Source: Vibrio sp.
Lineage (GTDB): Bacteria; Pseudomonadota; Gammaproteobacteria; Enterobacterales; Vibrionaceae
Direction: 5' to 3'
NCBI RefSeq assembly: GCF_048266485.1
Contig: NZ_JBLWZK010000008.1
Location: 39,763 to 103,762, forward strand
Length of the DNA: 64,000 nucleotides
Below are positions 19,576 through 60,939 of this stretch, in pieces. The notes under the pieces are model-generated. The model was not told where the DNA came from, did not search any database, and saw only the letters and a program-made list of their open reading frames with translations. Numbering within the stretch: position 1 is the first letter of the stretch; the number at the start of each line of letters is the position of its first letter. The translations under genes and the position numbers were made by a program.

Positions 19576-19585
19576 AGATAGCCTA

Positions 19586-41186: not shown

Positions 41187-41446
41187 TTGAATCATTAGTT
41201 TAATCAAAACCATTAACTTCCCCCCTTCATTTAGCTGAATTAAATCTTGCTAATACTCAAGTCACTTCAAGATGGAGTTTCAGCAATAATATAATGTTCA
41301 TAAATCAACCTATTTCAGAGGCTTTTTATGATTACCGCCACACTTTATAGATCCAGAATGTGACGGTGCTAGCAACTCCTCTCCACAATAAAAAACCACC
41401 ATTTGTCTTACAATATACTAAAAATGGTGAATCAAGGAGAGAGTCT

Positions 41447-41917: not shown

Positions 41918-41930
41918 GGAAAAGACTGCC

Positions 41931-42863
41931 ATGAATAATTTATTAAAAAAATTGCTTGTTACAGCTGGAATTCTTTTGTCAACCACCGCGGTTGCCGCAG
42001 ACTATCCAACCAAAAACATTCGCCTTATTGTTCCATTTGGTGCCGGTGGTGGCACGGATGCAGTTGGTCGAACACTGGCTAACTCTGCGAAAGATGTTTT
42101 AGGGCAAAACATTACTGTAATGAATCGTACTGGTGGTGCGGGTGCAGTTGGTATGAGTTTTGGTGCACAACAACGCCCAGACGGCTATACCCTAACCGTA
42201 GTCACTCGTGAAATTTCCTCTTTACCTCAAATGGGGTTGATGCAACACGATGCGAGTGATTTTAAATTAATCCGTATGGTAAACCTTGATCCTGCAGTCG
42301 TGCTTGTGTCAAAAGATAGCCCATACAACACCATTAATGACCTTATTGCAGAAGCAAAGAAAGAACCAGGTTCACTAAAATTTGCATCAACAGCAGCTCC
42401 CAACTTTTACTTAATGGCGCTTGAGAAAAAAGAAGGCATCAAACTGAATGCGATTCCATACAACGGTGCTTCAGAAGCGATTCCTGCGGTACTAGGTAAG
42501 CACACTGATGTGACTATGGTAACGCCAGGAGAAGCGATTGCTCAATTGCGTTCAGGCCAACTAAAAGCATTGGGCGTAATGTCTGCAGAGCGCATTGATT
42601 ACCTTCCTGAAGTACCTACTTTAAAAGAGCAAGGTGTCGATGTAGTAACAGGTACATGGCGTGGTATTGGTGCACCGAAAGGTACACCTGATGAAGTAAT
42701 TGAAACTCTAGGTAAAGCGTTTGACCAAGCAATGGCGAGCGATGAGTTCAAAGGATTCATGACAAAAGGGGCGATGACTATTCATAACCTCAATGCTGAA
42801 GAGTTCACTCAGTTTGTTGCTGAAGATACTAAAGCATTAGGCGCACTCATTAACGACAAATAG
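41931..42863 (+). CDS. tctC: Tripartite tricarboxylate transporter substrate-binding protein
   Basis: YPTKNIRLIVPFGAGGGTD, GGAGAVG...DGYTL, PYNGASEA and WRGIGAPKGTP motifs. Confidence 0.9.
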   Translation: MNNLLKKLLVTAGILLSTTAVAADYPTKNIRLIVPFGAGGGTDAVGRTLANSAKDVLGQNITVMNRTGGAGAVGMSFGAQQRPDGYTLTVVTREISSLPQMGLMQHDASDFKLIRMVNLDPAVVLVSKDSPYNTINDLIAEAKKEPGSLKFASTAAPNFYLMALEKKEGIKLNAIPYNGASEAIPAVLGKHTDVTMVTPGEAIAQLRSGQLKALGVMSAERIDYLPEVPTLKEQGVDVVTGTWRGIGAPKGTPDEVIETLGKAFDQAMASDEFKGFMTKGAMTIHNLNAEEFTQFVAEDTKALGALINDK

Positions 42864-42871
42864 TAACAACA

Positions 42872-42899
42872 AAAAATGGGGCCTACAGGCTCCATTTTT
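42872..42899. terminator. Intercistronic hairpin between tctC and tctB
   Basis: AAAAATGGGGCC-TACA-GGCTCCATTTTT. Confidence 0.6.
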
Positions 42900-42932
42900 G
42901 CTCAATTAACTAATTAAGTTGTAGAGTTTATT

Positions 42933-43376
42933 ATGAAAGATCGAAACCTTACCTTCCCCTTTTTAATGATCTTGATGAGTATTGGCGCATTAATTGTGAT
43001 CAGCCAATTTGATAAGCCCATGTTCCAGGATGCTAGCGTTGACGCAAAATTCTTTCCTCGAGTGATTGCGTTCGGCATTATTATTCTATCTTGTGTATTG
43101 ATGCTTCAAAGTATTATACAAAGAACAAAACAGACACTACCTCCAATTTTCTCCAAACTGTCTTTATTTGGAGTTGGATTTCTCATTCTGTATGCCTCAT
43201 TAATTTATTTCATTGGCTATTTAGCCGCTTCACTTATTGCCTTTACTAGTTATTTAATCTTCCTAAAAATCAAAAAACCTATGTATTACGTTTTTTCGAC
43301 GATTTTTGTCTTCTTTGTTTATTACTTATTCAGCGAAGTCTTTTTTATTTCTTTGCCACAAGGCGTATTTTTCTAA
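42933..43376 (+). CDS. tctB: TctB small membrane subunit
   Basis: Four TM segments, FFPR motif, C-terminal LPQG. Confidence 0.85.
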   Translation: MKDRNLTFPFLMILMSIGALIVISQFDKPMFQDASVDAKFFPRVIAFGIIILSCVLMLQSIIQRTKQTLPPIFSKLSLFGVGFLILYASLIYFIGYLAASLIAFTSYLIFLKIKKPMYYVFSTIFVFFVYYLFSEVFFISLPQGVFF

Positions 43377-43385
43377 GAGGCGGTT

Positions 43386-44870
43386 ATGTTAGAGCATTTA
43401 TTGAACGGCTTAGCTGTCACATTCAGTTTTGAAGTTCTGCCTGTCCTGATTTTTGGAGTATTGGGCGGCATTATCTTAGGTGCACTACCCGGCTTAACCG
43501 CCACTATGGGGGTTGCAATTCTTTTACCTTTTACTTTTGGTATGGAGCCTACCGCCGCGTTAGTGATGCTCATTGGTGTCTATATCGGTGGCATTTATGG
43601 CGGTTCCATTGCGGCTATTTTGCTTAAAACACCTGGCACTCCCGCATCTGCTGCCAGTGTACTGGATGGATATACCATGTCTTCCAATGGACAAGCCGCA
43701 CGTGCATTAAGTATTTCTGCCATTGCTTCTTTTGTTGGTGGATTGATCAGTACCATAGTGCTGATTGCCATCTCCCCTCTTTTGGCGAAGTTTGCTTTAA
43801 AATTTAACGCTCCTGAGTATTTTGCTTTGGCGTTATTTGGTTTAACGATTATTGCCAGTGTGTCTTCACAAAACATTCTCAAAGGCTTATTAGCAGGCGG
43901 AATTGGCTTATTGATTTCCACTGTCGGTTTAGATCCAATCAGTAGTGTTCCACGATTTACCTTTGGCGTGATGGATTTATACAGCGGTGTGAATGTAATT
44001 CCAGTGCTAATTGGTTTATTTGCTCTATCTGAAGCGCTAAATCAAATCGAAAAAATCTTGTCTGAAAAACAAATCAAACCACCTAAGTTTGATCGTAAAT
44101 TACTCAGTCAGAAAGATTTAAAAGAAATGATGCCGACGGCAGTGAAAAGCGGATTAATGGGAACAACCATAGGTTCAGTACCAGGTGCCGGTGCTGATAT
44201 TTCTGCCTTTGTTTGTTACAACGAAGCAAAACGATCTTCAAAGAATCCTGATGAGTTTGGTAAAGGATCGGTGAAAGGCTTAGCGGCGGCTGAAGCCGGT
44301 AACAATGGTGTAACTGGCGGTTCATTAGTGCCACTGCTTACTTTAGGTGTTCCTGGCGATGCGGTAGCGGCAGTACTTCTTGGTGCATTAATCATTCAAG
44401 GTTTAACCCCTGGTCCATTACTATTTGCTCAAAGCCCGGAAGTGGTTTACGGCGTGTTCAGTTCAATGCTGGTGGCTAACATAGTGATGTTGATTGTCGG
44501 CCTACTTGGCATTCGCTTTTTCTGTCGCATTATTGAAGTACCTAAGATTTTAATGATCCCGATTATTATCTTCTTATCAATTGTCGGCGCGTATGCCATC
44601 AACAACTCAATGTTTGATATTGGTATCGCAATTGGCTTCGGTGCTTTAGGCTTTATTCTCGGTAAATTAGATATTCCATCTTCACCGATTTTACTGGCTA
44701 TCATCTTGGGACCAATGGCGGAAACCAACTTGCGCAAGTCATTGTTAATGTATGATAACTCTTGGTCTTTCCTATACGATAGACCGATTGCCTTAGCCTT
44801 TATTGTATTGGCTGTTTTATCGGTTTACTCTACAATGAAAATGAAAAAGCGCGCGAATAAAGACGCTTAA
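43386..44870 (+). CDS. tctA: TctA large membrane subunit
   Basis: GALPGLTATMG, YGGSIAAILLKTPGTP, AAEAGNNG and LTLGVPG motifs. Confidence 0.93.
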   Translation: MLEHLLNGLAVTFSFEVLPVLIFGVLGGIILGALPGLTATMGVAILLPFTFGMEPTAALVMLIGVYIGGIYGGSIAAILLKTPGTPASAASVLDGYTMSSNGQAARALSISAIASFVGGLISTIVLIAISPLLAKFALKFNAPEYFALALFGLTIIASVSSQNILKGLLAGGIGLLISTVGLDPISSVPRFTFGVMDLYSGVNVIPVLIGLFALSEALNQIEKILSEKQIKPPKFDRKLLSQKDLKEMMPTAVKSGLMGTTIGSVPGAGADISAFVCYNEAKRSSKNPDEFGKGSVKGLAAAEAGNNGVTGGSLVPLLTLGVPGDAVAAVLLGALIIQGLTPGPLLFAQSPEVVYGVFSSMLVANIVMLIVGLLGIRFFCRIIEVPKILMIPIIIFLSIVGAYAINNSMFDIGIAIGFGALGFILGKLDIPSSPILLAIILGPMAETNLRKSLLMYDNSWSFLYDRPIALAFIVLAVLSVYSTMKMKKRANKDA

Positions 44871-44892
44871 TTTTCTCAATTTCAATCATAAA

Positions 44893-44932
44893 TAAAAAGT
44901 GCCGACATCTTAATCAAAGTGTCGGCACTTTT
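44893..44932. repeat. 40-bp hairpin / bidirectional terminator, copy 1 (left of the nar block)
   Basis: TAAAAAGTGCCGACATCTTAATCAAAGTGTCGGCACTTTT, 37/40 identical to 58701-58740. Confidence 0.9.
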
Positions 44933-44956
44933 ATCAATATCCCTATGAGCAATTGG

Positions 44957-45607
44957 TTAACAAATATTTTCTTCGTGAACCCACACTGCCATTTCAACAC
45001 GTGAACGTAAATTCAATTTTTTTAGCAAACTTTTGACATGGACCTTCACCGTTCCTTCTGCAATATCAAGTTTACGAGCTATCATCTTATTCGTCATACC
45101 TGTCGCAACTAACTTTAACGTTTGGAATTCCCGCTTAGTTAAACTATCAATCCCGCGTTGTACTTTCTTATTACGTAATCCTTCCATTAAAATAGGTGCC
45201 ATTTCAGGGCTTAATACCATCTGACCATGACAAGCTTGCTCAATCGCTTTTAATAACTCTTCCGGTTCCATATCTTTGAGTAAATATCCATCAGCACCAA
45301 GTTTAATCGCATTAGTCAAATCCCCTTTATAATTCGATACCGTAAACACTATAACTCGGCTTGATAAATGACAATTACGCAATTCTCGCAACGTTTCAAG
45401 ACCATTCATCTCCGGCATATTAAGATCCAAAAGAATAAGATCTGGATCGTATTTTTCAGCTAGCTCAATACCATCTACACCACTATGAGCCATTGCTACC
45501 ACTTGCATATGACTACTCATTTCAATTAAATGCTTGACCCCACCACAAAGCATTGGATGATCATCGATTAATAATATGGTTGATTTATCAGTGTGTTGTA
45601 TTTCCAT
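44957..45607 (-). CDS. narL: NarL response regulator
   Basis: [16 protein letters not shown] and GADGYLLKD receiver motifs plus LuxR-type HTH ([14 protein letters not shown]). Start at 45607. Confidence 0.9.
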
Positions 45608-45620
45608 AGCAATACCTTTT

Positions 45621-47450
45621 TTATTGAGGCGAGAATTCAATATTAATACGAGTTCCCATTCCTAGTTCTGATTCAATATTAAACTTACCAGGTAACGACT
45701 TTGCTCTATCTCTCATAATAGTAATGCCATAATGATTTTTAGGTTCGGTGATTCTGCTCATACCACAACCATTATCAATCACGGATATAGATACTTTTTG
45801 ATTCGTAGGATCGTATTTAGCATCGATATCAACGGAGCTGGCATGGGCATGTTTATAAATATTGGATAAAGCTTCTCGAATAATATGAACAATATGCACA
45901 GCTTGATGAGCAGAAATACTATTGGCAGGTGCATCAAAATTTAGCTGAATGATTAAACCAAGTTTCTCATTAAATTCTTCAATGGTATTTTCAAGAGCTG
46001 GCAATAACCCAGGTTCCATCACTTTTAACCTGAACGTAGTGAGTAAATGCCTAAGTTGACTATAGGCGGTGTCCACTTCTTGGCGCATTTCTGCGACTAA
46101 GGTTTTTTGATCATCCGAAAATTGTGCATTTTGCATTTGCAAACAACTTAAGCGTATTTTCATACAAGACAGAGATTGTGCGATAGAATCATGTAGCTCG
46201 CGAGCAATGGTTGCCCTTTCATTTGCGAGCAACACTTCACTATTGAGATGTTCTTGATATTTAGAGGCTAACGAACGCGTGATTTGCTTGCTTAAAGTAT
46301 CAATCAATTGCAATTCATCATCCGAAGCTTGTTGCTCTACGAAGAAATCAATTTTAAGGCGACCGTAACTGCGTAATCCATCTTCTAATTCCCACGCCTT
46401 CACTGAACCTACAACATCGGACACATCAGACATCGTATAAAAACAAGTATCACAGTGATTGTCTAAACAGCTTTCTGGTCGCTGATATTGTGCAGTGGTG
46501 ACAACTTGTTGATTCGCCGATTTATGATAATCAGCAATTTCTAAGGTAATATTTTTGTAGCCTGTAATCTCTTTCAACTCAAAAATAATAGGAGAAAATA
46601 ATGCACAGTAGCGTTCATTTTTATCTAGAATCAAAGCACCACTGGAACGATTTAGAAAATCGAGTAACCGATTCTTATACGTCAAACTCTGGGTTTTGAT
46701 TGTCACTAAAGATTCTAAGTTGGCATACATGCCTTCAAGTTTATCCGCCATGCTGTTAAACATGGTTCCCAATTGATGTAGTTCATCTTTTTTATTGGTC
46801 GCAGGAAAACGAGATTGTAAGTGACCATTTTTCAAATGAAATGACATAGTTAATAGCTGACGCCAAGGATGAAAAATACGACGCCGTAAATGAACAATAT
46901 TCACCAGTAACAGGATTATAAGAAGAAAAATAAAAAGGGTTTGTAAGGATTTTAAAATCCATAGACGGTGTTCTGTTTCTTTATCAATCAAATGCACTAA
47001 TTGATCTAATTGAGAGACATATTGAGTGATCTCACCTCTTGCTTCATCAGGAATCTTCGCAGTTAATAGGCTTGGCTTTACCACTTCAAGCCAATAGACA
47101 TGCACATTTTTATACTCGTCTGAAAAACCGCGCTCTTGTAAATAATCTTCCAAAAATTGGGAATGACGACTTTTATCAATTGCGGTTAAAACGTCATCTT
47201 TTTTTTGATTAAGAGGGAGTAATGAAAGCAATTCAAAACTTTGCATCCGCATATAGCCAATTCGGTTTATGGCATGAGCGTTCCCTTGAATACTGTTTGC
47301 AAACCAGGCTGACACCGACATTCCGACAATGGCACATAGCGAAATCACCAACATAGAGACAGAAATTTTACTGACTAAAGAAAAAGGATTCCAAAAGAAA
47401 GTCATTGGGCTTCGTTTTAATTTTGATTTCTGCAAATTAACTTGTGTCAT
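45621..47450 (-). CDS. narX: NarX nitrate sensor kinase
   Basis: P-box [16 protein letters not shown]-box [29 protein letters not shown] and DNGCG. The start codon is uncertain (47450-47498). Confidence 0.88.
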
Positions 47451-47618
47451 AACAGTCATTTTGAAAAGAATGAGTCGATATTTTATGCTTTTCCCCATAG
47501 AACCATATAACCATTTGTGGGTATCACTTAATATCCACGTATCAATATTATCGATGACACAATCAAGAGAAAAATCATAAGCAATTAATATTAAGACAAA
47601 TAAAAGTAAATCGATAAC

Positions 47619-47684
47619 TACCTATATTGTCCATGCAACCTCTTTTCAATACTAAAAAATGCACATCCACTTGATATGTGTCAA
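47619..47684 (+). promoter_or_regulatory. narK promoter: NarL heptamer and FNR site
   Basis: TACCTAT at 47619-47625 and TTGAT-ATGT-GTCAA at 47671-47684. Confidence 0.7.
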
Positions 47685-47745
47685 AAAGCCCTCTCAAAAA
47701 TAGGTCAAAGCTAATCGAAGTTTTCTCCCAACTAAGGACTTTGAA

Positions 47746-49140
47746 ATGGAATCGACCATTCATAATAATAAAAATATCAGCAAGGTTTTAACCCATTGGG
47801 TTCCTGAAGATCCAATATTTTGGCAGCAAGAAGGACAACATATTGCTCGGAAGAACTTATGGATTTCCATTCCTTGTTTGTTATTGTCGTTTTGCGTTTG
47901 GATGATATTTAGTACGGTTTCGGTCAATCTAAATAAAGTGGGGTTTAGTTTCACCACAGATCAATTGTTTTTATTGACTGCATTACCTTCGGCATCTGGT
48001 GCGATCATGCGCATCCCCTATTCATTTATGGTTCCGATTGTGGGAGGACGTCGTTGGACAGCTTTCACTACGGCCTTTCTTGCAATACCTTGTATTTGGT
48101 TGGCCCTTGCCGTCCAAAATCCCAATACTCCTTATTCCGTATTTGTTTTAATTTCCCTGCTGTGTGGCTTTGCTGGTGGTAATTTTGCTTCAAGCATGTC
48201 CAACATTAGCTTTTTCTTCCCTAAACATAAGCAAGGTGGGGCGCTTGGCCTGAATGGTGGCTTGGGTAATCTTGGTGTCAGTGTGTTGCAATTATTAGCC
48301 CCACTTGCCGTATCTATGGGGATCTTTAGCTTCTTTATTTCTGGTTCTCAACAGCCAGACGGAAGCATGTTGTGGCTCGCGAATGCGCCATTGATTTGGG
48401 TCCCTTTTATTATTATTGCGACGTTGGCAGCTTGGTTTGGGATGAATGATCTCGCGACAGCCAAAGCATCAATATCGGATCAATTACCGGTATTAAAACG
48501 CCCTCACATGTGGATATTAAGTTTCTTATATTTATCCACTTTTGGCTCGTTTATTGGATTTTCAGCCGGCTTTGCAATGTTAACCAATACACAATTCCCA
48601 ACGGTAGATATCATTCATATCGCCTTTATTGGCCCTTTATTAGGCGCATTAATGAGACCAGTTGGTGGCGCGCTATCGGATAAATTTGGCGGGATCAGAG
48701 TTACCACCATTAACTTTATTTTAATGGCAATCTTTACCGCTTCGATATTCTATTTCTTACCTGGAGAAATCTCAGAAAACGGTAATTTCGAATTATTCTT
48801 TATCGGGTTTATGATGTTATTCGCAACCGCAGGTCTGGGCAGTGGCTCAACATTCCAAATGATTGCTGTGGTATTCCGACAATTAACGGTAGAAAGAATG
48901 CTGCGTGAAAATGGTGGTGATGAAGAAAAAGCACAAGCACGGGCCATCAAAGACTCCGCTGCCGCTCTGGGATTTATCTCAGCAATAGGCGCCATTGGTG
49001 GCTTCTTTATCCCAAAAGCTTTTGGAACGTCTTTAGCATTAACTGGCTCGCCACTGGGTGCTATGAAGGTTTTCTTAGGCTTTTACATCGTATGCATCAT
49101 TTTGACATGGGCGGTATACGGACGTTATGAAAAGAAATAA
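47746..49140 (+). CDS. narK: NarK nitrate/nitrite transporter
   Basis: WVPEDPIFW, GFAGGNFASSMSNISFFFPK and GLGSGSTFQMI nitrate-signature motifs. Confidence 0.95.
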   Translation: MESTIHNNKNISKVLTHWVPEDPIFWQQEGQHIARKNLWISIPCLLLSFCVWMIFSTVSVNLNKVGFSFTTDQLFLLTALPSASGAIMRIPYSFMVPIVGGRRWTAFTTAFLAIPCIWLALAVQNPNTPYSVFVLISLLCGFAGGNFASSMSNISFFFPKHKQGGALGLNGGLGNLGVSVLQLLAPLAVSMGIFSFFISGSQQPDGSMLWLANAPLIWVPFIIIATLAAWFGMNDLATAKASISDQLPVLKRPHMWILSFLYLSTFGSFIGFSAGFAMLTNTQFPTVDIIHIAFIGPLLGALMRPVGGALSDKFGGIRVTTINFILMAIFTASIFYFLPGEISENGNFELFFIGFMMLFATAGLGSGSTFQMIAVVFRQLTVERMLRENGGDEEKAQARAIKDSAAALGFISAIGAIGGFFIPKAFGTSLALTGSPLGAMKVFLGFYIVCIILTWAVYGRYEKK

Positions 49141-49752
49141 TTAAGATCGAATCGATTAATAGGTTTTAAAAAATACCAGCTGTAAAGGCTACTAATAATT
49201 ATCTAAAGATATAAATAAATGTCAGGGGTTAATAAATGATTATAATTATATCTAATTAATATGTCTGAGATTGGAGGCAATACTTTGTCTTATTTCGACA
49301 CTCATCAACTAGACGTTAAAAATTGGCATTGCTCTCTTAATCTGTGCTCAGATTTCCAGAGCAATCGTATTCAAGGATTGTTTAAAAGTAAGAGTGAATA
49401 TGTTGCCATTTGGTATAGCTATAAACTTACTATCTAAGCAATCAATTCTTTTGTAGACGTTAAATTTGTTGAATTAACAAATCCTACCTATAAAAAATGA
49501 GAAAGAATATAAAAGTTTTTTAATCGTCAAGCTTCCTATAAATTACTTGCATAAAATTCCATAATTTTCGCTATTGACCCTGAAGAAAATAGCAACCACA
49601 GTGGCACATTTAAATGTGCTCTATGCAAAGATCAGGTCTTTCAACTGGTACGAAAATCGAAATTCGGCGGGCCACATTTCTTCGCTGATTGACCGCATCG
49701 AGACTCTTTGTAAAGAAGGTATACAAATCCCCCCAAAATTGGGAGGGTTAGA

Positions 49753-50270
49753 TTGAACAAATTAGTAACAATTAGGAGAGCATCTGCGCACGATGCTGAG
49801 ACATTAGGTGTGATTGGTCCCGCTGCTTATGCCACGACATACCATTACCTATCGAGTGACAGTATTACTCTGATCCATCAACTTGATACTTTTAGTAAAT
49901 CCGTATTTTTAGTACTGTTACAGCGAGATGACTCAAGGGTATGGGCTGCCGAAAAATCGAGGAAAATTATTGGTTTTCTAACAATGTTAATAAGTTCGGA
50001 AAATCCCACTACGTATGATACTAACGGTGCAGAAATTTCGAGGATTTACCTACTTCCAGGTAGCAAAAAATGGAAATTGAGTAAATGCTGCACAAGAATA
50101 TGCGAGTAAACTTAAGCTGACGAGGTGGCTTGATGTAATGGAGTCAGCAACAGTAGCAAGGAATGCGTATTATAAATGGGGTTTTCAGAGATAGGGCTTA
50201 AGACTTTCCTCCTCAAGTCAAAGCAGATTTATCAAAAATGCTTTTCCTGAGCATAAAACTCAATCCTAAA
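49753..50270 (+). pseudogene. Frameshifted GNAT acetyltransferase
   Basis: RBS GGAGGG plus TTG. Reads ...AEISRIYLLPG, then loses frame. EYASKLKLTRWLDVMESATVARNAYYKWGF follows in another frame. The end is approximate. Confidence 0.75.
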
Positions 50271-50522
50271 GGTAACAGAGCATTTCTGTGTATTAGGTAA
50301 TTATGGAACTACGAAGATTCGTATATGGCGATAAAATTGCGTTGACCCATTGACTTGCGGCTAGTTGATATTATTCAGTACAAAAAACGGCCATAATGTA
50401 CAATGATTTTCAATATCCAAACCGCCAAATTATTAAGTAACAATATGATAGTAAAAAATTTATAATCACAAGTGACGTTTCCAGAGATGTGTACATTAAA
50501 ATTAATACAGGGTAATGAGCCA

Positions 50523-51404
50523 ATGAATATTAACAACGAACTTGTTTATGAGCTTATATCTGCCCAGTTTCCGCAGTGGTCTAATTTACCCATCCGTCCC
50601 GTAGAAATGAGTGGATGGGATAATCGTACTTTTCATTTAGGTGGCGATATGCTCGTGCGCTTACCAAGTGCTGCGCATTACGCCTGTCAAGTCGAGAAAG
50701 AACAGGAATGGCTGCCAAAACTCGCGCCGTTCCTATCCCAAAAGATACCCACCCCGTTAGGCCTGGGGAAACCGACTGAACGTTATCCTTGGAAATGGTC
50801 TGTTTACCGTTGGATAAAAGGGAAAACTGTCGTTGCTTCTACTGAAATCGACCTTACTGTACTCGCTGAAGATTTAGCTAATTTTCTTATCAATTTTCAG
50901 GCTATAGACCTAAAAGGTGGGCCAGCTCCGGGGGCTCAAAACTTTTATCGTGGTGGTTCTATTGCTGTATACGATTCAGAAACCCGGCAGGCAATCAGTG
51001 CATTAAATGGAAAAATCGATTCGAATCTGGTTACTGAAATATGGAAGTCCGGCAGCTCTCAAACCTGGCAGAAAGAACCGGTTTGGGTTCATGGAGATAT
51101 CAGTGCGGGTAACCTGTTAATCAATAATGGTAGACTGGATGCTGTTATTGATTTTGGCCAGTTATGCATAGGTGACCCAGCATGTGATTTCGTCATTGCT
51201 TGGACATTATTTGATGCTGATAGCAGGCAGGTATTCCATGATATCCTTTTGCCTGATGCGCAGACCTGGGCAAGGGCGCGCGCCTGGGCGTTATGGAAGT
51301 CTTTGATAGTCATGCTTAACACAAACCAAACTAATGCGGTCGAGGCAAAGCAGGCACATCGAACATTCGAGAATATTCTTGCGGAGTATAGTTTAAACCA
51401 CTAA
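50523..51404 (+). CDS. Aminoglycoside phosphotransferase / choline-kinase-like family protein
   Basis: SGWDNRTFHLG, LVRLP, HGDISAGNLL (Brenner motif), VIDFG and GDPACD motifs. Start at 50523. Confidence 0.88.
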   Translation: MNINNELVYELISAQFPQWSNLPIRPVEMSGWDNRTFHLGGDMLVRLPSAAHYACQVEKEQEWLPKLAPFLSQKIPTPLGLGKPTERYPWKWSVYRWIKGKTVVASTEIDLTVLAEDLANFLINFQAIDLKGGPAPGAQNFYRGGSIAVYDSETRQAISALNGKIDSNLVTEIWKSGSSQTWQKEPVWVHGDISAGNLLINNGRLDAVIDFGQLCIGDPACDFVIAWTLFDADSRQVFHDILLPDAQTWARARAWALWKSLIVMLNTNQTNAVEAKQAHRTFENILAEYSLNH

Positions 51405-51626
51405 CAGTTAAAATAAGGCATGCGCCTAAAAGGATTATTTAATGAACAATCAAAAAGAAATAATGACATATTATATTGCCGAGTCTAAAGATAATTATTT
51501 TGTGCATGGCAGCCCTCCGATAGAGACGATTGAAGTTGTGGATTATGATATTTATCAAAAAATTTTCCAATCCCTTGATTATTTAGATAGCGAAGACGCA
51601 TAGCGTCTCCATAGATAATCCAGCCG

Positions 51627-51828
51627 TACACCTCTCTACCCCTCAATAGTCTACTTATCTCCACACTGATAACAACACTGGCAACAATAAAAATAAACCA
51701 TATTAAAACAACAGCTTAAATAAAAAAACCCAGTACCTAGTTGGAGGTATTTGTCTTTTTACCCTTGCGTAAGGACAAAGTGCTTCTTGATCAAAATCAA
51801 TATTCCTATTCTTTATCCTACCTATTCT
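51627..51828 (+). promoter_or_regulatory. narG promoter: NarL heptamers, IHF site, FNR box and -10
   Basis: TACCCCT at 51637-51643, IHF-like AAACAACAGCTTA at 51706-51718, 7-2-7 TACCTAG-TT-GGAGGTA at 51734-51749, perfect FNR TTGAT-CAAA-ATCAA at 51787-51800, and -10 TATTCT at 51823-51828. Confidence 0.85.
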
Positions 51829-51898
51829 GCTCGTGATAACCAATGTCAATATAAATACATATAACTACAGGTGAAAAACCTGATGAGGAGATCTCCGG

Positions 51899-54800
51899 AT
51901 GAGCAAATTTCTTGACCGGTTTCGTTACTTTAAGCAGCTCGGTGAAACCTTTTCAAATGATCATGGCCAAACATTAAAGACCAATCGCGATTGGGAAAAT
52001 AGCTATCGTAGTCGTTGGCAACATGACAAAATTGTTCGATCCACTCACGGCGTTAACTGTACCGGCTCTTGTAGCTGGAAAATTTATGTCAAAAATGGCC
52101 TAGTAACTTGGGAAACTCAACAAACCGATTATCCAAGAACTCGTCCAGATCTTCCAAACCACGAACCTCGTGGCTGTCCTCGTGGCGCAAGCTACTCTTG
52201 GTACCTTTACAGTGCCAACCGTGTAAAATACCCAATGATCCGTAAACGTTTGTTGAAACTATGGCAAGAAGCCAAACAACAACATAACGATCCAGTTGAT
52301 GCTTGGAAATCCATCACTTCAGATCCCGCAAAAATGCAGCAATACAAAAAAGCGCGTGGTCGTGGTGGATTTGTTCGCGCAAACTGGGCAGAAGTGAATG
52401 AGTTAATTGCTGCGGCAAACGTTCACACAGCCAAAGAACATGGTCCAGACCGTATCGCTGGTTTCTCACCAATCCCAGCTATGTCTATGGTGTCATATGC
52501 TTCTGGTGCTCGTTACTTATCGCTTATCGGTGGTACATGTTTAAGCTTCTACGATTGGTATTGTGATTTACCACCTGCCTCTCCAATGACTTGGGGCGAG
52601 CAAACGGATGTGCCCGAATCTGCAGATTGGTACAATTCTTCATACATCATTGCTTGGGGTTCAAACGTTCCACAAACACGTACGCCTGATGCCCACTTCT
52701 TCACCGAAGTTCGTTATAAAGGGACAAAAACTGTTGCGGTAACCCCTGATTACGCTGAAGTAGCCAAATTATGTGACCATTGGTTAAATCCAAAGCAAGG
52801 TACTGACAGCGCGATGGCATTGGCAATGGGTCATGTTTTATTAACTGAATTCCACACGAAACGCCAAGTGGAATACTTCAAGAACTACACTCAACAATAT
52901 ACAGATATGCCAATGTTGGTTGAGTTAGAAAAACGCGAAGACGGTACTTTTGTTCCTGGACGCCAATTACGCGCATCTGATTTGGTCGATAACCTTGGTC
53001 AAGATAACAATCCTGAATGGAAAACCATTGCCATTGATGACGCAACGGGCGAACTGATTGCACCACAAGGCTCAATTGGTTACCGCTGGGGTGAAGATGG
53101 CAAATGGAACCTTGAGCAAAAAGATGGCAAAACCGATCAAGAAAGAAACCTACGTTTAAGCTTGGTGGATTCTTGTGATGAAGTGGTTAATGTTGGCTTC
53201 CCTTACTTTGGTGGCCTACCAAGTGAGCACTTTAAAAATGTGGAACTTAATGATGTTATTCAACATAAACTGCCTGCTAAGCGCCTAACTAATGCGCAAG
53301 GCAATGACATTTTAGTCACCAGTGTTTACGACCTCACCATGGCAAACTATGGTGTTGATCGTGGCTTAAATGATGAAAATTGTGCAACAACCTACAGTGA
53401 AGTAAAAGCCTATTCTCCGGCTTGGGCTGAGCAAGTTACTGGCGTTAAACAAGAAGAAATCATCAAAATTGCACGTGAGTTTGGTGAAAATGCTGAAAAA
53501 ACTCGTGGCCGCTCTATGGTCATCGTTGGTGCAGGCCTGAACCACTGGTTCCACATGGATATGTCTTACCGAGGCATCATCAACATGTTGGTATTTTGTG
53601 GTTGTGTTGGTCAAAGTGGTGGCGGTTGGTCACATTATGTCGGTCAGGAAAAACTGCGTCCACAAACTGGCTGGCAACCTCTTGCCTTTGGTCTAGATTG
53701 GCAAAAACCGCCTCGTCATATGAATGGTACGTCTTTCTTCTACAACCATTCAAGTCAATGGCGTTATGAGACAGTGAACTCAAATGATCTTCTTTCTCCA
53801 TTAGCAGATAAATCTCGCTACAGCGAAAGTTTGCTTGATATGAATGTAAAAGCAGAACGTTTAGGCTGGTTACCGTCTTCTCCACAATTCGACATTAACC
53901 CTCTGACCGTGGCAAAAAAAGCAGAAGCAGAAGGCTTAAGTGCTGAAGATTACATGGTGAAAAACTTAAAAGATGGCAGTATCAAGTTCGCCTCTGAGCA
54001 GCCTGAAGATCACTACCCTCGTAACTTATTTATCTGGCGTTCCAACCTATTAGGTTCTTCCGGTAAAGGCCATGAATACATGCTGAAGTACTTATTAGGT
54101 ACTGAGAATGGCGTTCAAGGTAAAGATCTTGGTGAGCAAGGCAAAGTAAAACCAGAAGAAATTGAATGGAAAGATACCGGCACTGAAGGCAAGTTAGATC
54201 TTGTTGTAACGCTTGATTTCCGTATGTCGAGCACGTGCTTATTCTCTGACATCGTTCTGCCTACTGCGACTTGGTATGAAAAAGATGACATGAATACATC
54301 AGACATGCATCCATTCATTCACCCTCTTTCAGCCGCTGTTGATCCGGCTTGGGAAGCAAAAAGTGACTGGGAAATCTACAAAGGCATTGCGAAGAAATTC
54401 TCAGAAGTCTGTGTGGGCCATCTCGGTGTTGAAACCGATCTTGTTTCATTGCCAATCCAACATGATTCAAATGCTGAAATTGCTCAGCCATTTGATGTGC
54501 GAGATTGGAAAAAAGGCGAATGTGACCTTATCCCAGGTAAAACAGCGCCACACCTAAAAACCGTGGTTCGTGATTATCCAAATACTTATGAACGCTTCAC
54601 CTCCCTTGGTCCAATTTTGGATGAGCAAGGTAATGGCGGTAAAGGTATTAATTGGGAAACTCAAGTTGAAGTCGATTTCCTAAAAGAGCTGAACTACACC
54701 AAAACAAAAGGGGCAGCTGAAGGACGTCCATTAATTGAAAGCGCGATTGATGCCGCTGAAGTTATCTTATCTCTCGCACCTGAAACTAATGGTCAAGTGG

Positions 54801-55675
54801 CGGTGAAAGCTTGGAGCGCATTAAGTGAGAAAACCGGTATTGACCACACTCACCTTGCAACCAATAAAGAAGACGAAAAAATTCGCTTCCGTGATATTCA
54901 AGCACAACCACGTAAGATCATTTCAAGCCCGACTTGGTCTGGTTTAGAGGATGAACATGTATCTTATAACGCATGTTATACCAACGTACATGAGCTGATC
55001 CCATGGCGTACGCTATCAGGCCGTCAACAGTTGTATCAAGATCACCAATGGATGCGTGATTTCGGTGAAAGCTTAGTCGCTTATCGCCCGCCAGTTGATA
55101 CTCGTTCAGTACAAAGCGAAATCAATAGAAAGAGTAATGGCAACCCTGAAAAAGCGTTGAATTTCATTACTCCACACCAAAAATGGGGCATTCACTCAAC
55201 GTACAGTGAAAACCTATTGATGCTGACGCTTTCTCGCGGTGGTCCGATTGTTTGGATGAGTGAAGATGATGCGAAACAGCTTGGTATTGAAGATAACGAT
55301 TGGATCGAAGCCTTTAATAGCAATGGCGCATTGACTGCTCGTGCTGTTGTTAGCCAACGTGTTCCAGAAGGTATGGTGATGATGTATCACGCCCAAGAAC
55401 GTTTAGTGAATATTCCTGGTTCGGAAATCACACAACAACGTGGCGGTATCCATAACTCCGTGACTCGTATTACACCAAAACCGACGCATATGATTGGTGG
55501 TTACGCTCAGCAATCTTACGGATTTAACTATTACGGAACGGTGGGTTCTAACCGTGATGAGTTCGTTGTGGTTCGTAAGATGAAAGACGTGAAATGGCTA
55601 GATGACGAAAATAACGACTATGGCCAAGAAAAAGCCATTGCTCAAGCTTCAACAAAAACTGGACAGGAGAAATAA
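51899..55675 (+). CDS. narG: Respiratory nitrate reductase alpha subunit
   Basis: MSKFLDRFRYF, STHGVNCTGSCSW...PRGCPRG and TPHQKWGIHSTY motifs. Confidence 0.99.
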   Translation: MSKFLDRFRYFKQLGETFSNDHGQTLKTNRDWENSYRSRWQHDKIVRSTHGVNCTGSCSWKIYVKNGLVTWETQQTDYPRTRPDLPNHEPRGCPRGASYSWYLYSANRVKYPMIRKRLLKLWQEAKQQHNDPVDAWKSITSDPAKMQQYKKARGRGGFVRANWAEVNELIAAANVHTAKEHGPDRIAGFSPIPAMSMVSYASGARYLSLIGGTCLSFYDWYCDLPPASPMTWGEQTDVPESADWYNSSYIIAWGSNVPQTRTPDAHFFTEVRYKGTKTVAVTPDYAEVAKLCDHWLNPKQGTDSAMALAMGHVLLTEFHTKRQVEYFKNYTQQYTDMPMLVELEKREDGTFVPGRQLRASDLVDNLGQDNNPEWKTIAIDDATGELIAPQGSIGYRWGEDGKWNLEQKDGKTDQERNLRLSLVDSCDEVVNVGFPYFGGLPSEHFKNVELNDVIQHKLPAKRLTNAQGNDILVTSVYDLTMANYGVDRGLNDENCATTYSEVKAYSPAWAEQVTGVKQEEIIKIAREFGENAEKTRGRSMVIVGAGLNHWFHMDMSYRGIINMLVFCGCVGQSGGGWSHYVGQEKLRPQTGWQPLAFGLDWQKPPRHMNGTSFFYNHSSQWRYETVNSNDLLSPLADKSRYSESLLDMNVKAERLGWLPSSPQFDINPLTVAKKAEAEGLSAEDYMVKNLKDGSIKFASEQPEDHYPRNLFIWRSNLLGSSGKGHEYMLKYLLGTENGVQGKDLGEQGKVKPEEIEWKDTGTEGKLDLVVTLDFRMSSTCLFSDIVLPTATWYEKDDMNTSDMHPFIHPLSAAVDPAWEAKSDWEIYKGIAKKFSEVCVGHLGVETDLVSLPIQHDSNAEIAQPFDVRDWKKGECDLIPGKTAPHLKTVVRDYPNTYERFTSLGPILDEQGNGGKGINWETQVEVDFLKELNYTKTKGAAEGRPLIESAIDAAEVILSLAPETNGQVAVKAWSALSEKTGIDHTHLATNKEDEKIRFRDIQAQPRKIISSPTWSGLEDEHVSYNACYTNVHELIPWRTLSGRQQLYQDHQWMRDFGESLVAYRPPVDTRSVQSEINRKSNGNPEKALNFITPHQKWGIHSTYSENLLMLTLSRGGPIVWMSEDDAKQLGIEDNDWIEAFNSNGALTARAVVSQRVPEGMVMMYHAQERLVNIPGSEITQQRGGIHNSVTRITPKPTHMIGGYAQQSYGFNYYGTVGSNRDEFVVVRKMKDVKWLDDENNDYGQEKAIAQASTKTGQEK

Positions 55676-55677
55676 GC

Positions 55678-57273
55678 ATGAAAATCCGTTCTCAAGTCGG
55701 CATGGTGCTTAACCTAGACAAATGTATTGGCTGTCACACCTGTTCAGTCACTTGTAAAAATGTATGGACCAGCCGTGAAGGTATGGAATACGCCTGGTTC
55801 AACAACGTCGAGAGTAAACCTGGTGTGGGTTACCCGGCAAACTGGGAAGACCAAGACCAATGGAAAGGTGGCTGGATCCGTAAAATCAATGGAAAGTTAG
55901 AACCAAGAATGGGCAGCAAGGTTGGCGTATTGTCAAAACTATTCAATAACCCAGATATGCCATCGATTGATGATTATTACGAACCGTTTACTTTCGATTA
56001 TGAGCATCTACAAAATGCCAAAGAAAGCAAACATCAGCCTATTGCTCGTCCACGTTCGTTGATCACTGGCCAACGTATGGACAAAATTGAAAATGGTCCA
56101 AACTGGGAAGAAATTCTTGGTGGTGAGTATTCAAAACGTTCCAAAGATTACAACTTAAACACATTTGGTTTCGAGCAAAAACAAAAAGAAATGGTCGGTG
56201 AATTCGAAAACACCTTCATGATGTATTTGCCTCGTCTGTGCGAGCACTGTTTAAACCCAGCCTGTGTGGCAACTTGTCCTAGTGGCTCAATCTACAAGCG
56301 TGAAGAAGACGGCATTGTCTTGATCGACCAAGATAAATGTCGTGGCTGGCGGATGTGTTTAACTGGTTGTCCATATAAGAAAATCTACTTCAACTGGAAA
56401 TCAGGAAAATCTGAAAAATGTCTTTTCTGTTACCCACGAATTGAAGCTGGTCAACCAACGGTATGTTCCGAAACTTGTGTTGGTCGTATCCGTTATTTGG
56501 GTGTGATGCTTTATGACGCCGACAAAATTGAACAAGCAGCATCAACCGAAAACGTCACCGATCTTTACCAAGAACAGTTGAATGTTTTCCTCGATCCTAA
56601 TGACCCTGAAGTGATTAAAGAGGCACAGGCTCAAGGGATCCCGATGAGCACAATAGAAGCAGCGCAAAAATCACCAGTCTATAAAATGGCAGTTGATTGG
56701 AAATTGGCACTACCGCTTCACCCAGAATATCGCACCCTTCCTATGGTGTGGTATGTGCCACCACTATCACCAATTCAATCAGTAACGGATGCAGGCGTAC
56801 TGGATGGTGATGGCGTGTTGCCTGAAATTGAACGTTTACGTATTCCCGTAAAATACTTAGCAAATTTATTAACGGCAGGTGACGAAAAGCCGGTACTGAA
56901 CGCGTTAAAACGTATGCTTGCAATGCGTCATTATAAACGCTCAGAAACCGTTGATGGTGTGATTGATACATCTGCACTAGAAGAAACAGGCCTCACTGAA
57001 GCACAAGCGAAAGAAATGTATCGCTACCTAGCCATTGCCAACTACGAAGATCGATTTGTGATCCCAGCAAGTCATCGTGAAATGGCAAAAGAGTCTTTCC
57101 CTGATTCTTTTGATAACAAAGGTGCTTTTGCTGAGAAAAGTAGTTGTGGCTTTAGCTTTGGTGACGGATGTCATGGGGGCGGAAGCGACAATAAATTCAA
57201 CCTATTTGATAGTAAACGTATTGATGCCATTAACATCGAGCCTCAAACATCAAACAAAAATGGAGTGGAATAA
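55678..57273 (+). CDS. narH: Nitrate reductase beta subunit
   Basis: CIGCHTCSVTC, CEHCLNPAC, CRGWRMCLTGCP and CLFCYPR Fe-S motifs. Confidence 0.99.
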   Translation: MKIRSQVGMVLNLDKCIGCHTCSVTCKNVWTSREGMEYAWFNNVESKPGVGYPANWEDQDQWKGGWIRKINGKLEPRMGSKVGVLSKLFNNPDMPSIDDYYEPFTFDYEHLQNAKESKHQPIARPRSLITGQRMDKIENGPNWEEILGGEYSKRSKDYNLNTFGFEQKQKEMVGEFENTFMMYLPRLCEHCLNPACVATCPSGSIYKREEDGIVLIDQDKCRGWRMCLTGCPYKKIYFNWKSGKSEKCLFCYPRIEAGQPTVCSETCVGRIRYLGVMLYDADKIEQAASTENVTDLYQEQLNVFLDPNDPEVIKEAQAQGIPMSTIEAAQKSPVYKMAVDWKLALPLHPEYRTLPMVWYVPPLSPIQSVTDAGVLDGDGVLPEIERLRIPVKYLANLLTAGDEKPVLNALKRMLAMRHYKRSETVDGVIDTSALEETGLTEAQAKEMYRYLAIANYEDRFVIPASHREMAKESFPDSFDNKGAFAEKSSCGFSFGDGCHGGGSDNKFNLFDSKRIDAINIEPQTSNKNGVE

Positions 57274-58010
57274 TGGAAAATCTAAAAATTATTTCATTAT
57301 TACTTGAATATCCAGATCATGAGATCTGGTTACACAGAGACGAGTTGATGAAAGACATTTCAGAAATGCTGTTTCTTAGCCCTGCTCAAATGAGTCGTTT
57401 ATATACCTTCATTGAAGAACTAACAGAGCAAGATTTATTAGATGCTCAATCTAACTATATCGAATTATTCGACCGAGGCCGTTCACTATCATTGTTATTG
57501 TTTGAACACGTACATGGTGAATCAAGAGATCGTGGTCAAGCCATGATCGACTTGATGGAACAATACAAAACGGTAGGCTTACAAATCGAAAGCATCGAAT
57601 TACCTGATTATTTACCGGTTTATCTTGAGTATTTATCGACACAAACTCGTGAAGAAGCCACCCAAGGATTGGCCGATATTGCCCCCATCTTGGCCCTACT
57701 TGGTGCTCGTTTAAAAAAACGCGGCAGTAAATACCAACATTTATTTACGTTACTACTTGAATTATCAGGTACAAAAGTACGCCCGAAACATTTAAATAAT
57801 AATGTAGAAAAAGAAGATCGTGATGATACACCAGAAGCTTTAGATGCCGTTTGGGAAGAGGAACAAATCAAATTCTTAGGTGAAGAAGGCTGTGCTTCTG
57901 CTGAGCAAAACATGCATCAAAAGCGTTTTTCCGACAGTGTACAACCCCAATATATCAGCTTAGATTCATTGCCATTAAGCTCTAACTCAGCCACTGGAGG
58001 ACAATTATGA
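57273..58010 (+). CDS. narJ: Nitrate reductase chaperone
   Basis: [26 protein letters not shown] and ELPDYLP motifs. Confidence 0.97.
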
Positions 58011-58696
58011 GTTTTCTAAATACCTTCTTTTTTGACGTGTATCCTTATATTGCCAGTGCTGTATTTTTCATTGGTAGTTGGATCCGTTATGACTACGCAC
58101 AATACACATGGCGTGCAGGTTCAAGCCAAATGCTCACTAGCCGTGATGATAAGCGTTATATGCGTATTGCTTCCAATTTATTCCACGTAGGCATCTTGGG
58201 AATTTTTGCTGGTCACTTTGTCGGTATGCTAACCCCGCATTGGATGTATGCGCCATTTATCACCATTGCCGCGAAACAAAAACTGGCTATGATTGCTGGT
58301 GGGGCTTGTGGTTTGATGACGGTGACCGGTGGCGCGATGCTACTTAAACGTCGCTTGACTAACTCACGCGTTCGCGCAACATCTAGCTTTGCTGATATCG
58401 GCATTCTAACGCTATTGGTGATCCAAGCAACCCTCGGTGTTCTAACTATTCCATTCTCTGCACAACATATGGATGGCAGTGAAATGATGAAATTAGTTGG
58501 CTGGGCACAATCAGTAATGACGTTTGGTGCCGATTCTTCTGCTCACTTAGATGGGGTTGCTATAATATTTCGAGTTCATATAGTGTTAGGTATGACTCTG
58601 TTCTTGTTATTCCCATTCTGTCGTTTAGTCCATATTTGGAGTGTACCGGTAGAATACCTCACCCGTAAATATCAGCTTGTTCGTCAACGCCGATAA
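58007..58696 (+). CDS. narI: Nitrate reductase gamma subunit (cytochrome b)
   Basis: [19 protein letters not shown]...GHF, HIVLG and [10 protein letters not shown] motifs. Confidence 0.97.
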
Positions 58697-58700
58697 TCAG

Positions 58701-58740
58701 TAAAAAGTGCCGAAATCTTAATCAAGGTTTCGGCACTTTT
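58701..58740. repeat. 40-bp hairpin / bidirectional terminator, copy 2 (right of the nar block)
   Basis: TAAAAAGTGCCGAAATCTTAATCAAGGTTTCGGCACTTTT. Confidence 0.9.
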
Positions 58741-58770
58741 CTTTGAATAACGATCAGCAGCCTTTTGGCT

Positions 58771-59949
58771 CTACTTGCCCATCACCTTTTTATGTACAAG
58801 CCCAGCGATTAAACCCCAAAGTGTCGCTCCGATACCGAACAAGGTAATCCCCGACAAAGTCACTAAAAACGTATATAGCGATGACTCACGTAAACCTTCA
58901 TCTGAAAACGCACTTTGCATGCACATTAATAGCGTTCCAAGTAACGCAAGGCCAGCCAGAATATTTGAAACCTCCTTTGGTAGAGCAAGGAAAATAGTTA
59001 CCACTGCGGTAGCCCATAAACCAGCAATGACATAAAACACGCCCGCCCACATGGCTGAACGGTAACGCTGCGTTCTATCTTCATCTACCTCTTCATTCAT
59101 ACAAATCGCGGCTGAAATCGCGGCAAGGTTTAAACTAAAACCACCAAACGGAGCAAGAAGCATATTAAAAATGCCAGTGCCAATAAACACAGGCTTGCCA
59201 GGTACTTGATATTGATAACTGCGTATCATGGCAAAGCCGGGTAAGTTCTGCGACAGCATGGTAATAATGTAAAGCGGTACGCTTAGGTTAAGCATCGCCA
59301 TCAAATCAAAATCAGGCGTGACCCATACGGGTTTCGCGATATCTAACGAAATACTTTGCCCATCAAATGCACCAGAAAAAATAGCAATCGCCACACCGAC
59401 AATGAGCAATAACATCATGGCATAGCGAGGTAAATAACGTTTCGCGACAAAAAAGGTCACCACCATTAACCCAAATGTTGCAGGGCTAGTCATCACAGGC
59501 GTAAACGCTTTAAGACAAAATGGTATCAAAATAGCTGCCAACATAGCGGTTGCGAGTTGAGATGGGATCTTTTCAATCAAGCGACTAAGGGGAGATATTA
59601 AACCTGTAAGCACAATCAAAAAGCCTGAAATGATAAAAGCACCAATCACTTCAGGTAGAGCGTATTGCCCTACTACCGCCACCAACATTGCCGCACCGGG
59701 GGTTGACCACGACATCAATACCGGCATCTTATAATACCAAGAATAAGCAATCGAGCTTACCCCTACCATTAACCCTAAAACCAATAACCAACTGGCAATT
59801 TCTAAAGGGTTTGCTCCGGCTGCGGTAGCGGCTTGTATGATAATAACAATTGAGCTGGTATAACCGATTAACACTGCAGTAAAACCTGCAGAAATATGGC
59901 TAATATTCCCCCACGACTTTAAGTGATCTAACTTTACATCATCCATCAT
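58771..59949 (-). CDS. BenE/YdcO-family transporter
   Basis: SWSTPGAA, TMLSQNLPG and NLAAISAAIC motifs. The start is approximate. Confidence 0.88.
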   Translation of the reverse strand: MMDDVKLDHLKSWGNISHISAGFTAVLIGYTSSIVIIIQAATAAGANPLEIASWLLVLGLMVGVSSIAYSWYYKMPVLMSWSTPGAAMLVAVVGQYALPEVIGAFIISGFLIVLTGLISPLSRLIEKIPSQLATAMLAAILIPFCLKAFTPVMTSPATFGLMVVTFFVAKRYLPRYAMMLLLIVGVAIAIFSGAFDGQSISLDIAKPVWVTPDFDLMAMLNLSVPLYIITMLSQNLPGFAMIRSYQYQVPGKPVFIGTGIFNMLLAPFGGFSLNLAAISAAICMNEEVDEDRTQRYRSAMWAGVFYVIAGLWATAVVTIFLALPKEVSNILAGLALLGTLLMCMQSAFSDEGLRESSLYTFLVTLSGITLFGIGATLWGLIAGLVHKKVMGK

Positions 59950-60057
59950 TTGCGCCGACTCTTCCTTGTATCCGTGACTCAATTCAAGCCATCATATCCA
60001 AATCTATCTAATCAAGTCACTCTATCTAGCCACTCTACCTAACCAGCAAACAAAGCA

Positions 60058-60939
60058 TTAAAGCTGAATACATTTAAGCTGAGCAATTAACTCTTGGGTA
60101 GCCTTACCCTGTGGATGTTGAGTTGACCAAATAAGATCGATTCCTTGCTTCCATGGCTGAGACTCGAAAGACAACTCTAGTCGCTTTAATTGATTCGAAG
60201 AAACAAAATCGTTGACTACTTGAGCCGGTAATGAAGCCCAACCTAGCCCTTGTTGTAACATAGGTATAGTCGAATGTGCACTTTCTGTACGCCATACTTG
60301 ATCAGACACGCGCCATCTTGGCGTATCTTGATTGTATCGACCAGTGATTAAAAACTGACGGTAGTTCTCTAGCATTTGCCATGTCAGTTTTTCTTCCTTG
60401 GCCAGAGGGTGATCGACACCAGTTACACACCAAAACTCCAAAGAGCCCAACCCATAGACTTCAATTTCTCCGGGATACATCAATTCTAACTGCTGTAAAA
60501 CGGCCAGTTGCGCTCGACCATCACGAATGAATTCTAACACCTCGCTCTCATTCACATGCAAAATTTCTATTTCGACTAATGGATATTGTTGCTCAAAATG
60601 ACACAGAGCTTCAGCCACCGCTTGTGTCATCGCCATTGATTCCACCACCAGCGTGATCTTTTCTTCAACACCCATTTGATAAGCATCAGCTGCCGATAAA
60701 AATATCCCACATTCGTTCAATATTCGCTTAGCGCGTAGTAATAATGCTTCTCCGTGTGACGTCAATTTTGGCGAGCGAGTGGAGCGATCAAACAAACTTA
60801 AATTTAAGTCATCTTCAAGGTTAGCAATTGCGGTACTGATTACTGATTGCGCTTTGCCTAAATGCCGTGCGGCAGCTGAAAATGATCCTTGTTCCGCAGC
60901 GACAACAAATGCTTGTAATTGGTCTATTGAAAATCGCAT
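60058..60939 (-). CDS. LysR regulator divergent from the PACE exporter (AceR-like arrangement)
   Basis: GSFSAAARHLGKAQSVISTAIANLE helix-turn-helix. Confidence 0.9.
   Translation of the reverse strand: MRFSIDQLQAFVVAAEQGSFSAAARHLGKAQSVISTAIANLEDDLNLSLFDRSTRSPKLTSHGEALLLRAKRILNECGIFLSAADAYQMGVEEKITLVVESMAMTQAVAEALCHFEQQYPLVEIEILHVNESEVLEFIRDGRAQLAVLQQLELMYPGEIEVYGLGSLEFWCVTGVDHPLAKEEKLTWQMLENYRQFLITGRYNQDTPRWRVSDQVWRTESAHSTIPMLQQGLGWASLPAQVVNDFVSSNQLKRLELSFESQPWKQGIDLIWSTQHPQGKATQELIAQLKCIQL

Follow-up and report, generated by a model that had tools for sequence, protein, structure and literature searches.

In a 64,000-nt stretch of Vibrio sp. DNA (contig NZ_JBLWZK010000008.1 of RefSeq assembly GCF_048266485.1, positions 39,763 to 103,762; hereafter the window), a 13.8-kb block of nitrate respiration genes (nar) is bracketed by two near-identical 40-bp hairpins, hpA (44893-44932) and hpB (58701-58740). 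We consider it probable that both are copies by descent of the terminator that had separated tctA from benE, which ended up on both sides of the inserted block, that hpB is the resident copy, and that the two have been kept by selection for pairing, being neither attachment (att) sites nor members of a dispersed repeat. On this account narXL, narK and narGHJI would have been inserted, in an ancestor of a marine Vibrio-like lineage, at the edge of the lone tctA/benE terminator, whereby each of the new convergent pairs (tctA/narL and narI/benE) would have obtained a terminator of its own. As each copy would terminate both of the units converging at its junction, four transcription units would stay insulated from one another, which may be the reason why both hairpins have persisted. 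On this reading the locus is a tidy and fairly ordinary gene gain, without need of a mobile element or family of repeats of a new kind, the unusual feature being that a whole terminator forms a 40-bp direct repeat at both borders.

Direct reading of the window gives TAAAAAGTGCCGACATCTTAATCAAAGTGTCGGCACTTTT for hpA (between the convergent tctA and narL) and TAAAAAGTGCCGAAATCTTAATCAAGGTTTCGGCACTTTT for hpB (between the convergent narI and benE). The original prediction had described them as direct repeats identical at 37/40 positions, with no other copy in the window, and this description holds: the mismatches fall on unit positions 14 (C/A), 26 (A/G) and 29 (G/T), a 39-mer search allowing up to 3 mismatches returned these two sites alone (0 in 100 shuffles), and the stem core AAAGTGCCGA is, within the window, confined to them. 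Under the pairing rule of the hairpin (i+j=43), positions 14 and 29 form a C-G pair in hpA and an A-T pair in hpB, while G26 forms with C17 an additional stem pair that is present in hpB only; the compensatory change and the pair added by the third difference had thus both been read correctly. The previously given spacings (24 bp from the narL stop and 4 bp from the narI stop) match the measured ones, hpA lying 22 nt from the tctA stop and 24 nt from that of narL (44957-44959), and hpB 4 nt from the narI stop (58694-58696) and 30 nt from that of benE. On either strand both copies fold stably, with energies of -21.5 to -25.8 kcal/mol (z -6.3 to -8.9), the GC-rich stem of 13-17 bp being preceded by an A-run and followed by a T-run (T4-5). 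A stable GC stem-loop followed by a U-run on both strands, placed 3' of convergent stops, is the signature of a bidirectional intrinsic terminator, and by shape and position hpA and hpB are predicted to act as two-way Rho-independent terminators. A search of the window against Rfam matched no family, and a search for RNA runs containing the sequence returned none.

A junction in which a single hairpin lies between tctA and benE had been proposed as the thing to look for in nar-negative relatives, and it was found in two of them. Among three species-level relatives reached via BenE (DNA about 87% identical), one locus from a metagenome-assembled genome (L122, GCA_947503015.1) reads lysR-benE-[one hairpin]-tctA-tctB-tctC, without nar; in blastn against the window its tct side ends at 44932 and its benE side starts at 58702, and the two alignments overlap exactly on the hairpin. 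In a second relative (‘organism C’, metagenomic run X11), a contig of depth 75 joins 44897 to 58702 and skips 13,804 bases, with a depth of about 0 over nar. The hairpin of organism C reads CAAAAAGTGCCGAAATCTTAATCAAGGTTT and is identical to hpB over the 29 readable nt, and that of L122 corresponds to hpB with one loop change, followed by a 30-nt spacer to benE in which 27/30 positions are conserved. Since the hairpins of both relatives show the hpB states at each of the three diagnostic positions, hpB would be the resident copy (i.e. the ortholog of the single hairpin) and hpA, with C14, A26 and G29 as derived states, the extra one. The leading bases are T then A5 in both window copies and C or A then A5-6 in the empty sites. 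A likeness of the L122 spacer to the end of narI (‘ATAAYCAGT’) is most likely due to chance, as the narI 3' end aligns codon by codon with the narI of a nar-bearing relative (L127).

The single-hairpin junctions of L122 and organism C are, at the same time, the exact product that a deletion by recombination between the 40-bp repeats would leave, and the polarity could therefore be turned around, with the hairpin-flanked nar as the older state and the nar-less relatives as its losers. Such a reversal would agree with the age of nar in the clade, as the nar genes of L125-127 are about 87.5% identical to those of the window, a divergence equal to that of the flanking genes. We nevertheless regard it as unlikely, given that four relatives (L121, L123, L140 and L141) are without nar, tct and the GTGCCGA hairpin at this slot, that all other nar-bearing Vibrio lineages examined have nar elsewhere and without the hairpin, and that a loss would have to leave the hpB states at all three diagnostic positions in both empty sites. 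Furthermore, none of the four runs with same-species strains, in which depths are low, shows an excision joint from 44932 to 58741. A gain of nar, rather than its loss, would be the simpler reading. The hairpin goes with the 3' end of the tct module, being missing wherever tct is missing.

Within what was surveyed (the window, one metagenome, a metagenome collection and the fetched loci), the hairpin is no dispersed repeat. When a 48-mer of hpA was aligned against the contigs of run X1 (a metagenome holding a 99.5% identical strain), a single contig was matched, i.e. an unbroken tctA-narL contig of 4,082 nt; as a repeated 31-mer would have split it, the hairpin is single-copy in X1. A loop-aware pattern returned from the metagenome collection one chance match, inside the GC-rich coding sequence of a response regulator, and no relevant copy; among 136 loci then fetched, the stem with its 16-nt spacing occurred only at the orthologous L122, L135 and L136 and in three unrelated organisms. 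The idea that the hairpins belong to a family of dispersed REP-like or MITE-like elements (repetitive extragenic palindromes or miniature inverted-repeat transposable elements), or that they are independent terminators which converged in sequence, draws on the recurrence of the bare stem AAAAGTGCCGA...TCGGCACTTTT, by chance or convergence, in many unrelated phyla (at least 120 loci in a stem-only scan of genome contigs). The bare stem is simply a good terminator stem: none of the 120 stem-bearing loci listed has the loop of the window hairpin, and the loop together with the 37/40 positions is common only to the two window copies and the orthologous sites. With 2 copies in 64 kb, 1 in X1 and otherwise orthologous sites (in place of the many scattered copies of a REP-like family), we hold this idea to be extremely improbable. 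Of the two possibilities left by the original prediction, the insertion of nar as a unit at a terminator hairpin thus gains from the two single-hairpin junctions, and the REP-like family falls with the lack of dispersed copies. A DNA uptake sequence in the style of Haemophilus or Neisseria was dropped as well, there being two copies only.

Selection appears to keep the stem of the hairpin paired, as can be followed in strains and relatives recovered from metagenomic runs (Logan assemblies; for strain Y and for a second X29 strain the hairpin sequences were reconstructed from listed differences). In strain Y (runs X28 and X29), hpA carries A14 together with G29, i.e. an unpaired A.G; in L135 and L136 hpA is identical to that of the window. 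With A-T as the outgroup state (hpB and the empty sites), the shortest path would lead from A-T to A.G (kept in strain Y) and further to C-G (the window, L135 and L136), and we read the 14/29 pair as a compensatory change caught half-way, across three lineages. The hpB of the second X29 strain has C11T together with G32A (C-G to T-A), A15G (A-T to G.T) and T16C (T.G to C-G). When six distinct versions of the hairpin were set against the stated structure, 95.6% of cells were paired (33-54% with the partners slid), two pairs having changed at both of their positions and two more at one position without loss of pairing. Between species (about 13% difference in coding DNA) the hairpin differs at 0-2 of 40 positions, in a region where the tctA-side spacer is barely alignable.

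Length variants were encountered too: in one strain of run X12 the T4 of hpA is shortened to T3 at 44929, and in the 96% strains (X28 and X29) hpB has gained AA in the A-run after 58701 and lost 1 nt of the loop at 58724. Insertions and deletions are, in these cases, tolerated in the A/T runs and the loop and not in the stem.

As for the duplication itself, we favor a route in which recombination or template switching took place at the hairpin while the nar DNA was being joined, either as a single crossover in which a circular nar molecule, itself bearing a copy of the hairpin, recombined with the resident terminator, or as a switch of template during replication that would have copied the hairpin twice. 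That the 40-bp repeat is instead a true target-site duplication, produced by a recombinase-independent insertion directed by the hairpin, seems to us distinctly doubtful; here the palindrome would extrude and be nicked at the base of the stem on opposite strands, the foreign DNA would be joined, and fill-in would duplicate the terminator. A staggered break at the base of an extruded palindrome followed by fill-in would give exactly the observed product. The insertion of a transposon or insertion sequence (IS) was rejected, the window having no transposase and a repeat of 40 bp (in place of terminal inverted repeats and a target duplication of 2-14 bp); neither terminal inverted repeats nor IS remnants were found at the ends of the insert (44933 and 58700). 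An integron attC was discarded likewise, since direct reading of the 40-mer revealed no GTTRRRY cores and no integron integrase is present.

The likeness of the two hairpins reaches to some extent into their surroundings. The 20-nt flanks of hpA and hpB match at 11/20 positions on the left (44873-44892 and 58681-58700) and at 10/20 on the right (44933-44952 and 58741-58760), which exceeds random pairs from the window (joint p about 0.0003-0.003), and the original duplication may have measured 60-80 bp and decayed since. This evidence is equivocal, as native narI coding sequence makes up the left flank of hpB and part of the signal is chance. Separately, the palindrome of hpB reaches past the 40-mer (58691-58752), in that CGATAATCAG, with the narI stop inside it, and CTTTGAATAACG, lying towards benE, are for the most part complementary; with arms of 29 nt that are 79% complementary, the possible stem is longer than that of hpA.

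Direct repeats at both borders of a block, together with a one-copy empty site, are also the classic signature of an island, and the hairpins might be its attL and attR, recombined by a site-specific enzyme that is encoded elsewhere or has since been lost. We judge this highly improbable. The original prediction had stated that no integrase is present, and indeed neither an integrase nor an excisionase, a transposase or a transfer RNA (tRNA) target was found in the window or by precomputed Pfam annotation of the syntenic loci (L121-123 and L135). Moreover, the repeat coincides with a terminator palindrome, and the one later transfer that we could follow bypassed it. In strain Y, where identity to the nar block of the window is 96.2%, a single contig of 13,742 nt covers 44653-49172 and 51629-58875, and contains the last 218 nt of tctA, hpA, the nar block without the accessory stretch that carries an aminoglycoside phosphotransferase (APH)-family gene, hpB and the last 105 nt of benE; past both contig ends the sequence is unrelated to the window and GC-richer, and depth is zero over the rest of tctCBA, benE and lysR. 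Nothing in strain Y matches window positions 1-20000 at an identity of at least 80%, a region over which organism C is collinear (about 90%) and X1 is more than 99% identical. A window-like nar locus, complete with hairpins and gene stubs, was thus recently transferred horizontally into an unrelated genome or replicon, and the tctA and benE stubs on the block prove the direction of the transfer. The strain Y breakpoints lie 240 nt and 135 nt outside the hairpins; that transfer thus did not break at the hairpins, and strain Y lends no support to them as recombination sites in their own right.

A further variant bears on the descent of the two copies. The dominant strain of X1 (99.5%) is without 58700-60046 (hpB, benE and the benE promoter), its junction joining, with no microhomology, the narI stop plus 3 nt to a point 11 nt short of the lysR stop, and the left end of the gap coincides with the base of the hpB hairpin. 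We interpret the X1 form as a later deletion with its left end at the hairpin base. It could alternatively be an older form, in a history of two lineages whereby nar first replaced benE (giving tctA-hpA-nar-lysR, as in X1) and hpB together with benE was afterwards regained from a nar-less relative, hpA and hpB being then orthologs. That the gap begins at the left border of hpB speaks for such a history, as does the identity of hpB with the organism C hairpin over the 29 nt read, set against the three sites at which hpA differs. It would need, however, two events at precisely one junction, first a replacement and then a re-insertion. The adjacency of lysR and benE is ancestral in the syntenic relatives with a lysR (five), and the other nar-positive strains, as well as strain Y (96%), already have hpB with a benE stub. 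The leading T, common to both copies and missing from the empty sites, is likewise at odds with it, and we view an origin of the copies in two lineages as very improbable.

Several points weigh against the duplication of a resident terminator that we favor. The duplication step is not visible in the data, and we know of no mechanism that makes a 40-bp target duplication. The polarity would rest on the distribution of nar and the hairpin, and not on a rooted tree, and terminator function is deduced from shape and position. All three differences are carried by hpA and none by hpB, which could mean that the copies came from different lineages. The covariation is weak (n=6 sequences, with 27/500 shuffles reaching the observed values), and as a count taken alone it would lend little support to selection on pairing. 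The rarity of the hairpin rests on the window, the metagenomes and the fetched loci.

The place into which nar was inserted is part of a wider variable slot (41187-58770), bounded by the benE stop and by the conserved terminator of a siderophore Lys/Orn oxygenase gene (‘Hairpin2’, 41153-41186, unrelated to hpA and hpB). The slot holds nothing in L123 and in V. gangliei (L141), a YCII gene in L140 and an M20 peptidase in L121, and its cargo thus varies between none, a YCII gene, an M20 peptidase, a 156-aa open reading frame (ORF) with tctCBA, and tctCBA with nar, in all cases without mobility genes. With alternative contents between the same conserved flanking genes and no mobility genes, the slot is a hot spot for cargo of the islet type; homologous recombination through the flanks after DNA uptake is suggested only by the tctA and benE stubs on the strain Y block.

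Where nar was examined in further Vibrio lineages, it occupies different loci, next to unrelated terminators and without the window hairpin. In L129-L134 (NarL 89% identical) the neighbour of narL, beyond an unrelated terminator, is a sugar ABC transporter, in L125-127 (NarI 96%, DNA 87.5%) narI is followed by a different hairpin and a SEC-C gene, and in L137-139 nar adjoins defence islands. In V. algicola (L128, CP045700.1, 7711-10654) nar has decayed to narL and fragments of narI/narJ, with DDE transposase genes interspersed; this decayed locus adjoins a Mu-like phage tail region. As hpA has no counterpart beside narL in these lineages, it did not travel with narL; that it might be narL's own terminator was rejected in view of the unrelated terminators found 3' of narL in L133 and L128. 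A plasmid database yielded only distant nar homologs (72-75% identity).

A second variable spot lies inside the nar block, i.e. the accessory stretch between narK and narG (49141-51898, + strand). It is missing in strain Y, where 49172 is joined to 51629 with 62 other letters between, as well as in the L129 lineage and in a V. casei-like lineage (spacer of 460 bp), and its depth is low in X1. In the window it contains an APH-family kinase gene (about 50523-51404), a small ORF and a candidate remnant of an acetyltransferase-like ORF (49753-50109) for which no family match was obtained.

Bidirectional Rho-independent terminators between convergent genes, together with their compensatory evolution, have been documented in Bacillus cereus (PMC5381666). 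The window hairpins share with these the A-run/GC stem/T-run layout on both strands, the position just 3' of convergent stops, and the compensated stem changes (14/29 and 11/32) with an unpaired intermediate; they differ in that two copies, 13.8 kb apart, bracket an acquired block, and in that termination is here predicted from sequence. With regard to the block, the closest parallel is with the minimal mobile elements of Neisseria, i.e. islets without mobility genes which are swapped between conserved flanking genes at hot spots (PMC3787668, PMC1797815). The slot of the window resembles them by its varying cargo in relatives and its lack of mobility genes, whereas transformation and exchange through flanking homology are here only suggested. 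To our knowledge, the Neisseria islets have not been described as flanked by a duplicated terminator. Islands borne by an integrase likewise show, at each border, a direct repeat of some tens of bp, of which the empty site has a single copy; in contrast to them, the window has no integrase or tRNA target, and its repeat is at the same time a terminator palindrome, which a later transfer bypassed. REP sequences, bacterial interspersed mosaic elements (BIMEs) and integron attC sites are, like hpA and hpB, short imperfect palindromes just 3' of genes, from which the window hairpins are set apart by their two copies only and by the absence of a REP-associated tyrosine transposase (RAYT), of an integron integrase and of GTTRRRY cores. 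We know of no named class in which a complete terminator stands as a 40-bp direct repeat at both borders, and a literature search for one returned none.

We argue that the locus offers a clean and dated example of how nitrate respiration may be added to a Vibrio-like genome without a mobility gene, and of how the duplication of an intrinsic terminator can leave a new block insulated at both of its junctions. The tctA and benE stubs on the moved block could, in turn, act as homology arms for its further spread. Should further insertions turn out to have duplicated terminators, a hairpin-linked route of insertion would be indicated; and if hairpin-directed insertion were true and general, the terminators of convergent genes would be self-renewing landing pads, which place terminators on both sides of incoming blocks.

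The gene order of the locus, from left to right, is tctC, tctB and tctA (+), hpA, narL and narX (-), narK, the accessory stretch and narGHJI (+), hpB, and benE with a LysR regulator (-), the two hairpins, the insert as a whole and Hairpin2 being recorded without strand. The tct module (41931-44870) comprises tctC (41931-42863), tctB (42933-43376) and tctA (43386-44870), assigned through Pfam TctA/B/C matches of the syntenic L122 and L135 genes; Hairpin2 marks, to its left, the conserved edge of the variable slot. The inserted segment (44933-58700, 13,768 bp) is delimited by its absence from the empty sites (blastn of L122 and the joint in X11). It starts with the response regulator narL (44957-45607, 216 aa from an ATG start; NCBIfam NarL 1.3e-94, P0241 100% identical) and the sensor kinase narX (45621-47498; NCBIfam NarX 7.4e-179), and continues with the nitrate/nitrite transporter narK/narU (47746-49140), the accessory stretch, and narG (51899-55675), narH (55678-57273), narJ (57273-58010) and narI (58007-58696), for which Pfam matches were obtained on syntenic genes. 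An exact look-up of NarI gave no match. On the right, the benzoate/H+ symporter family gene benE (58771-59949; NCBIfam benE 1.8e-103) is convergent with narI, and the LysR-family regulator upstream of it (60058-60939) belongs to the conserved right flank. BenE is 80% identical to that of Vibrio gangliei, NarL is 88-89% identical to those of V. algicola and other Vibrio, and the window is 99.4% identical (blastn) to GCA_053544035.1.

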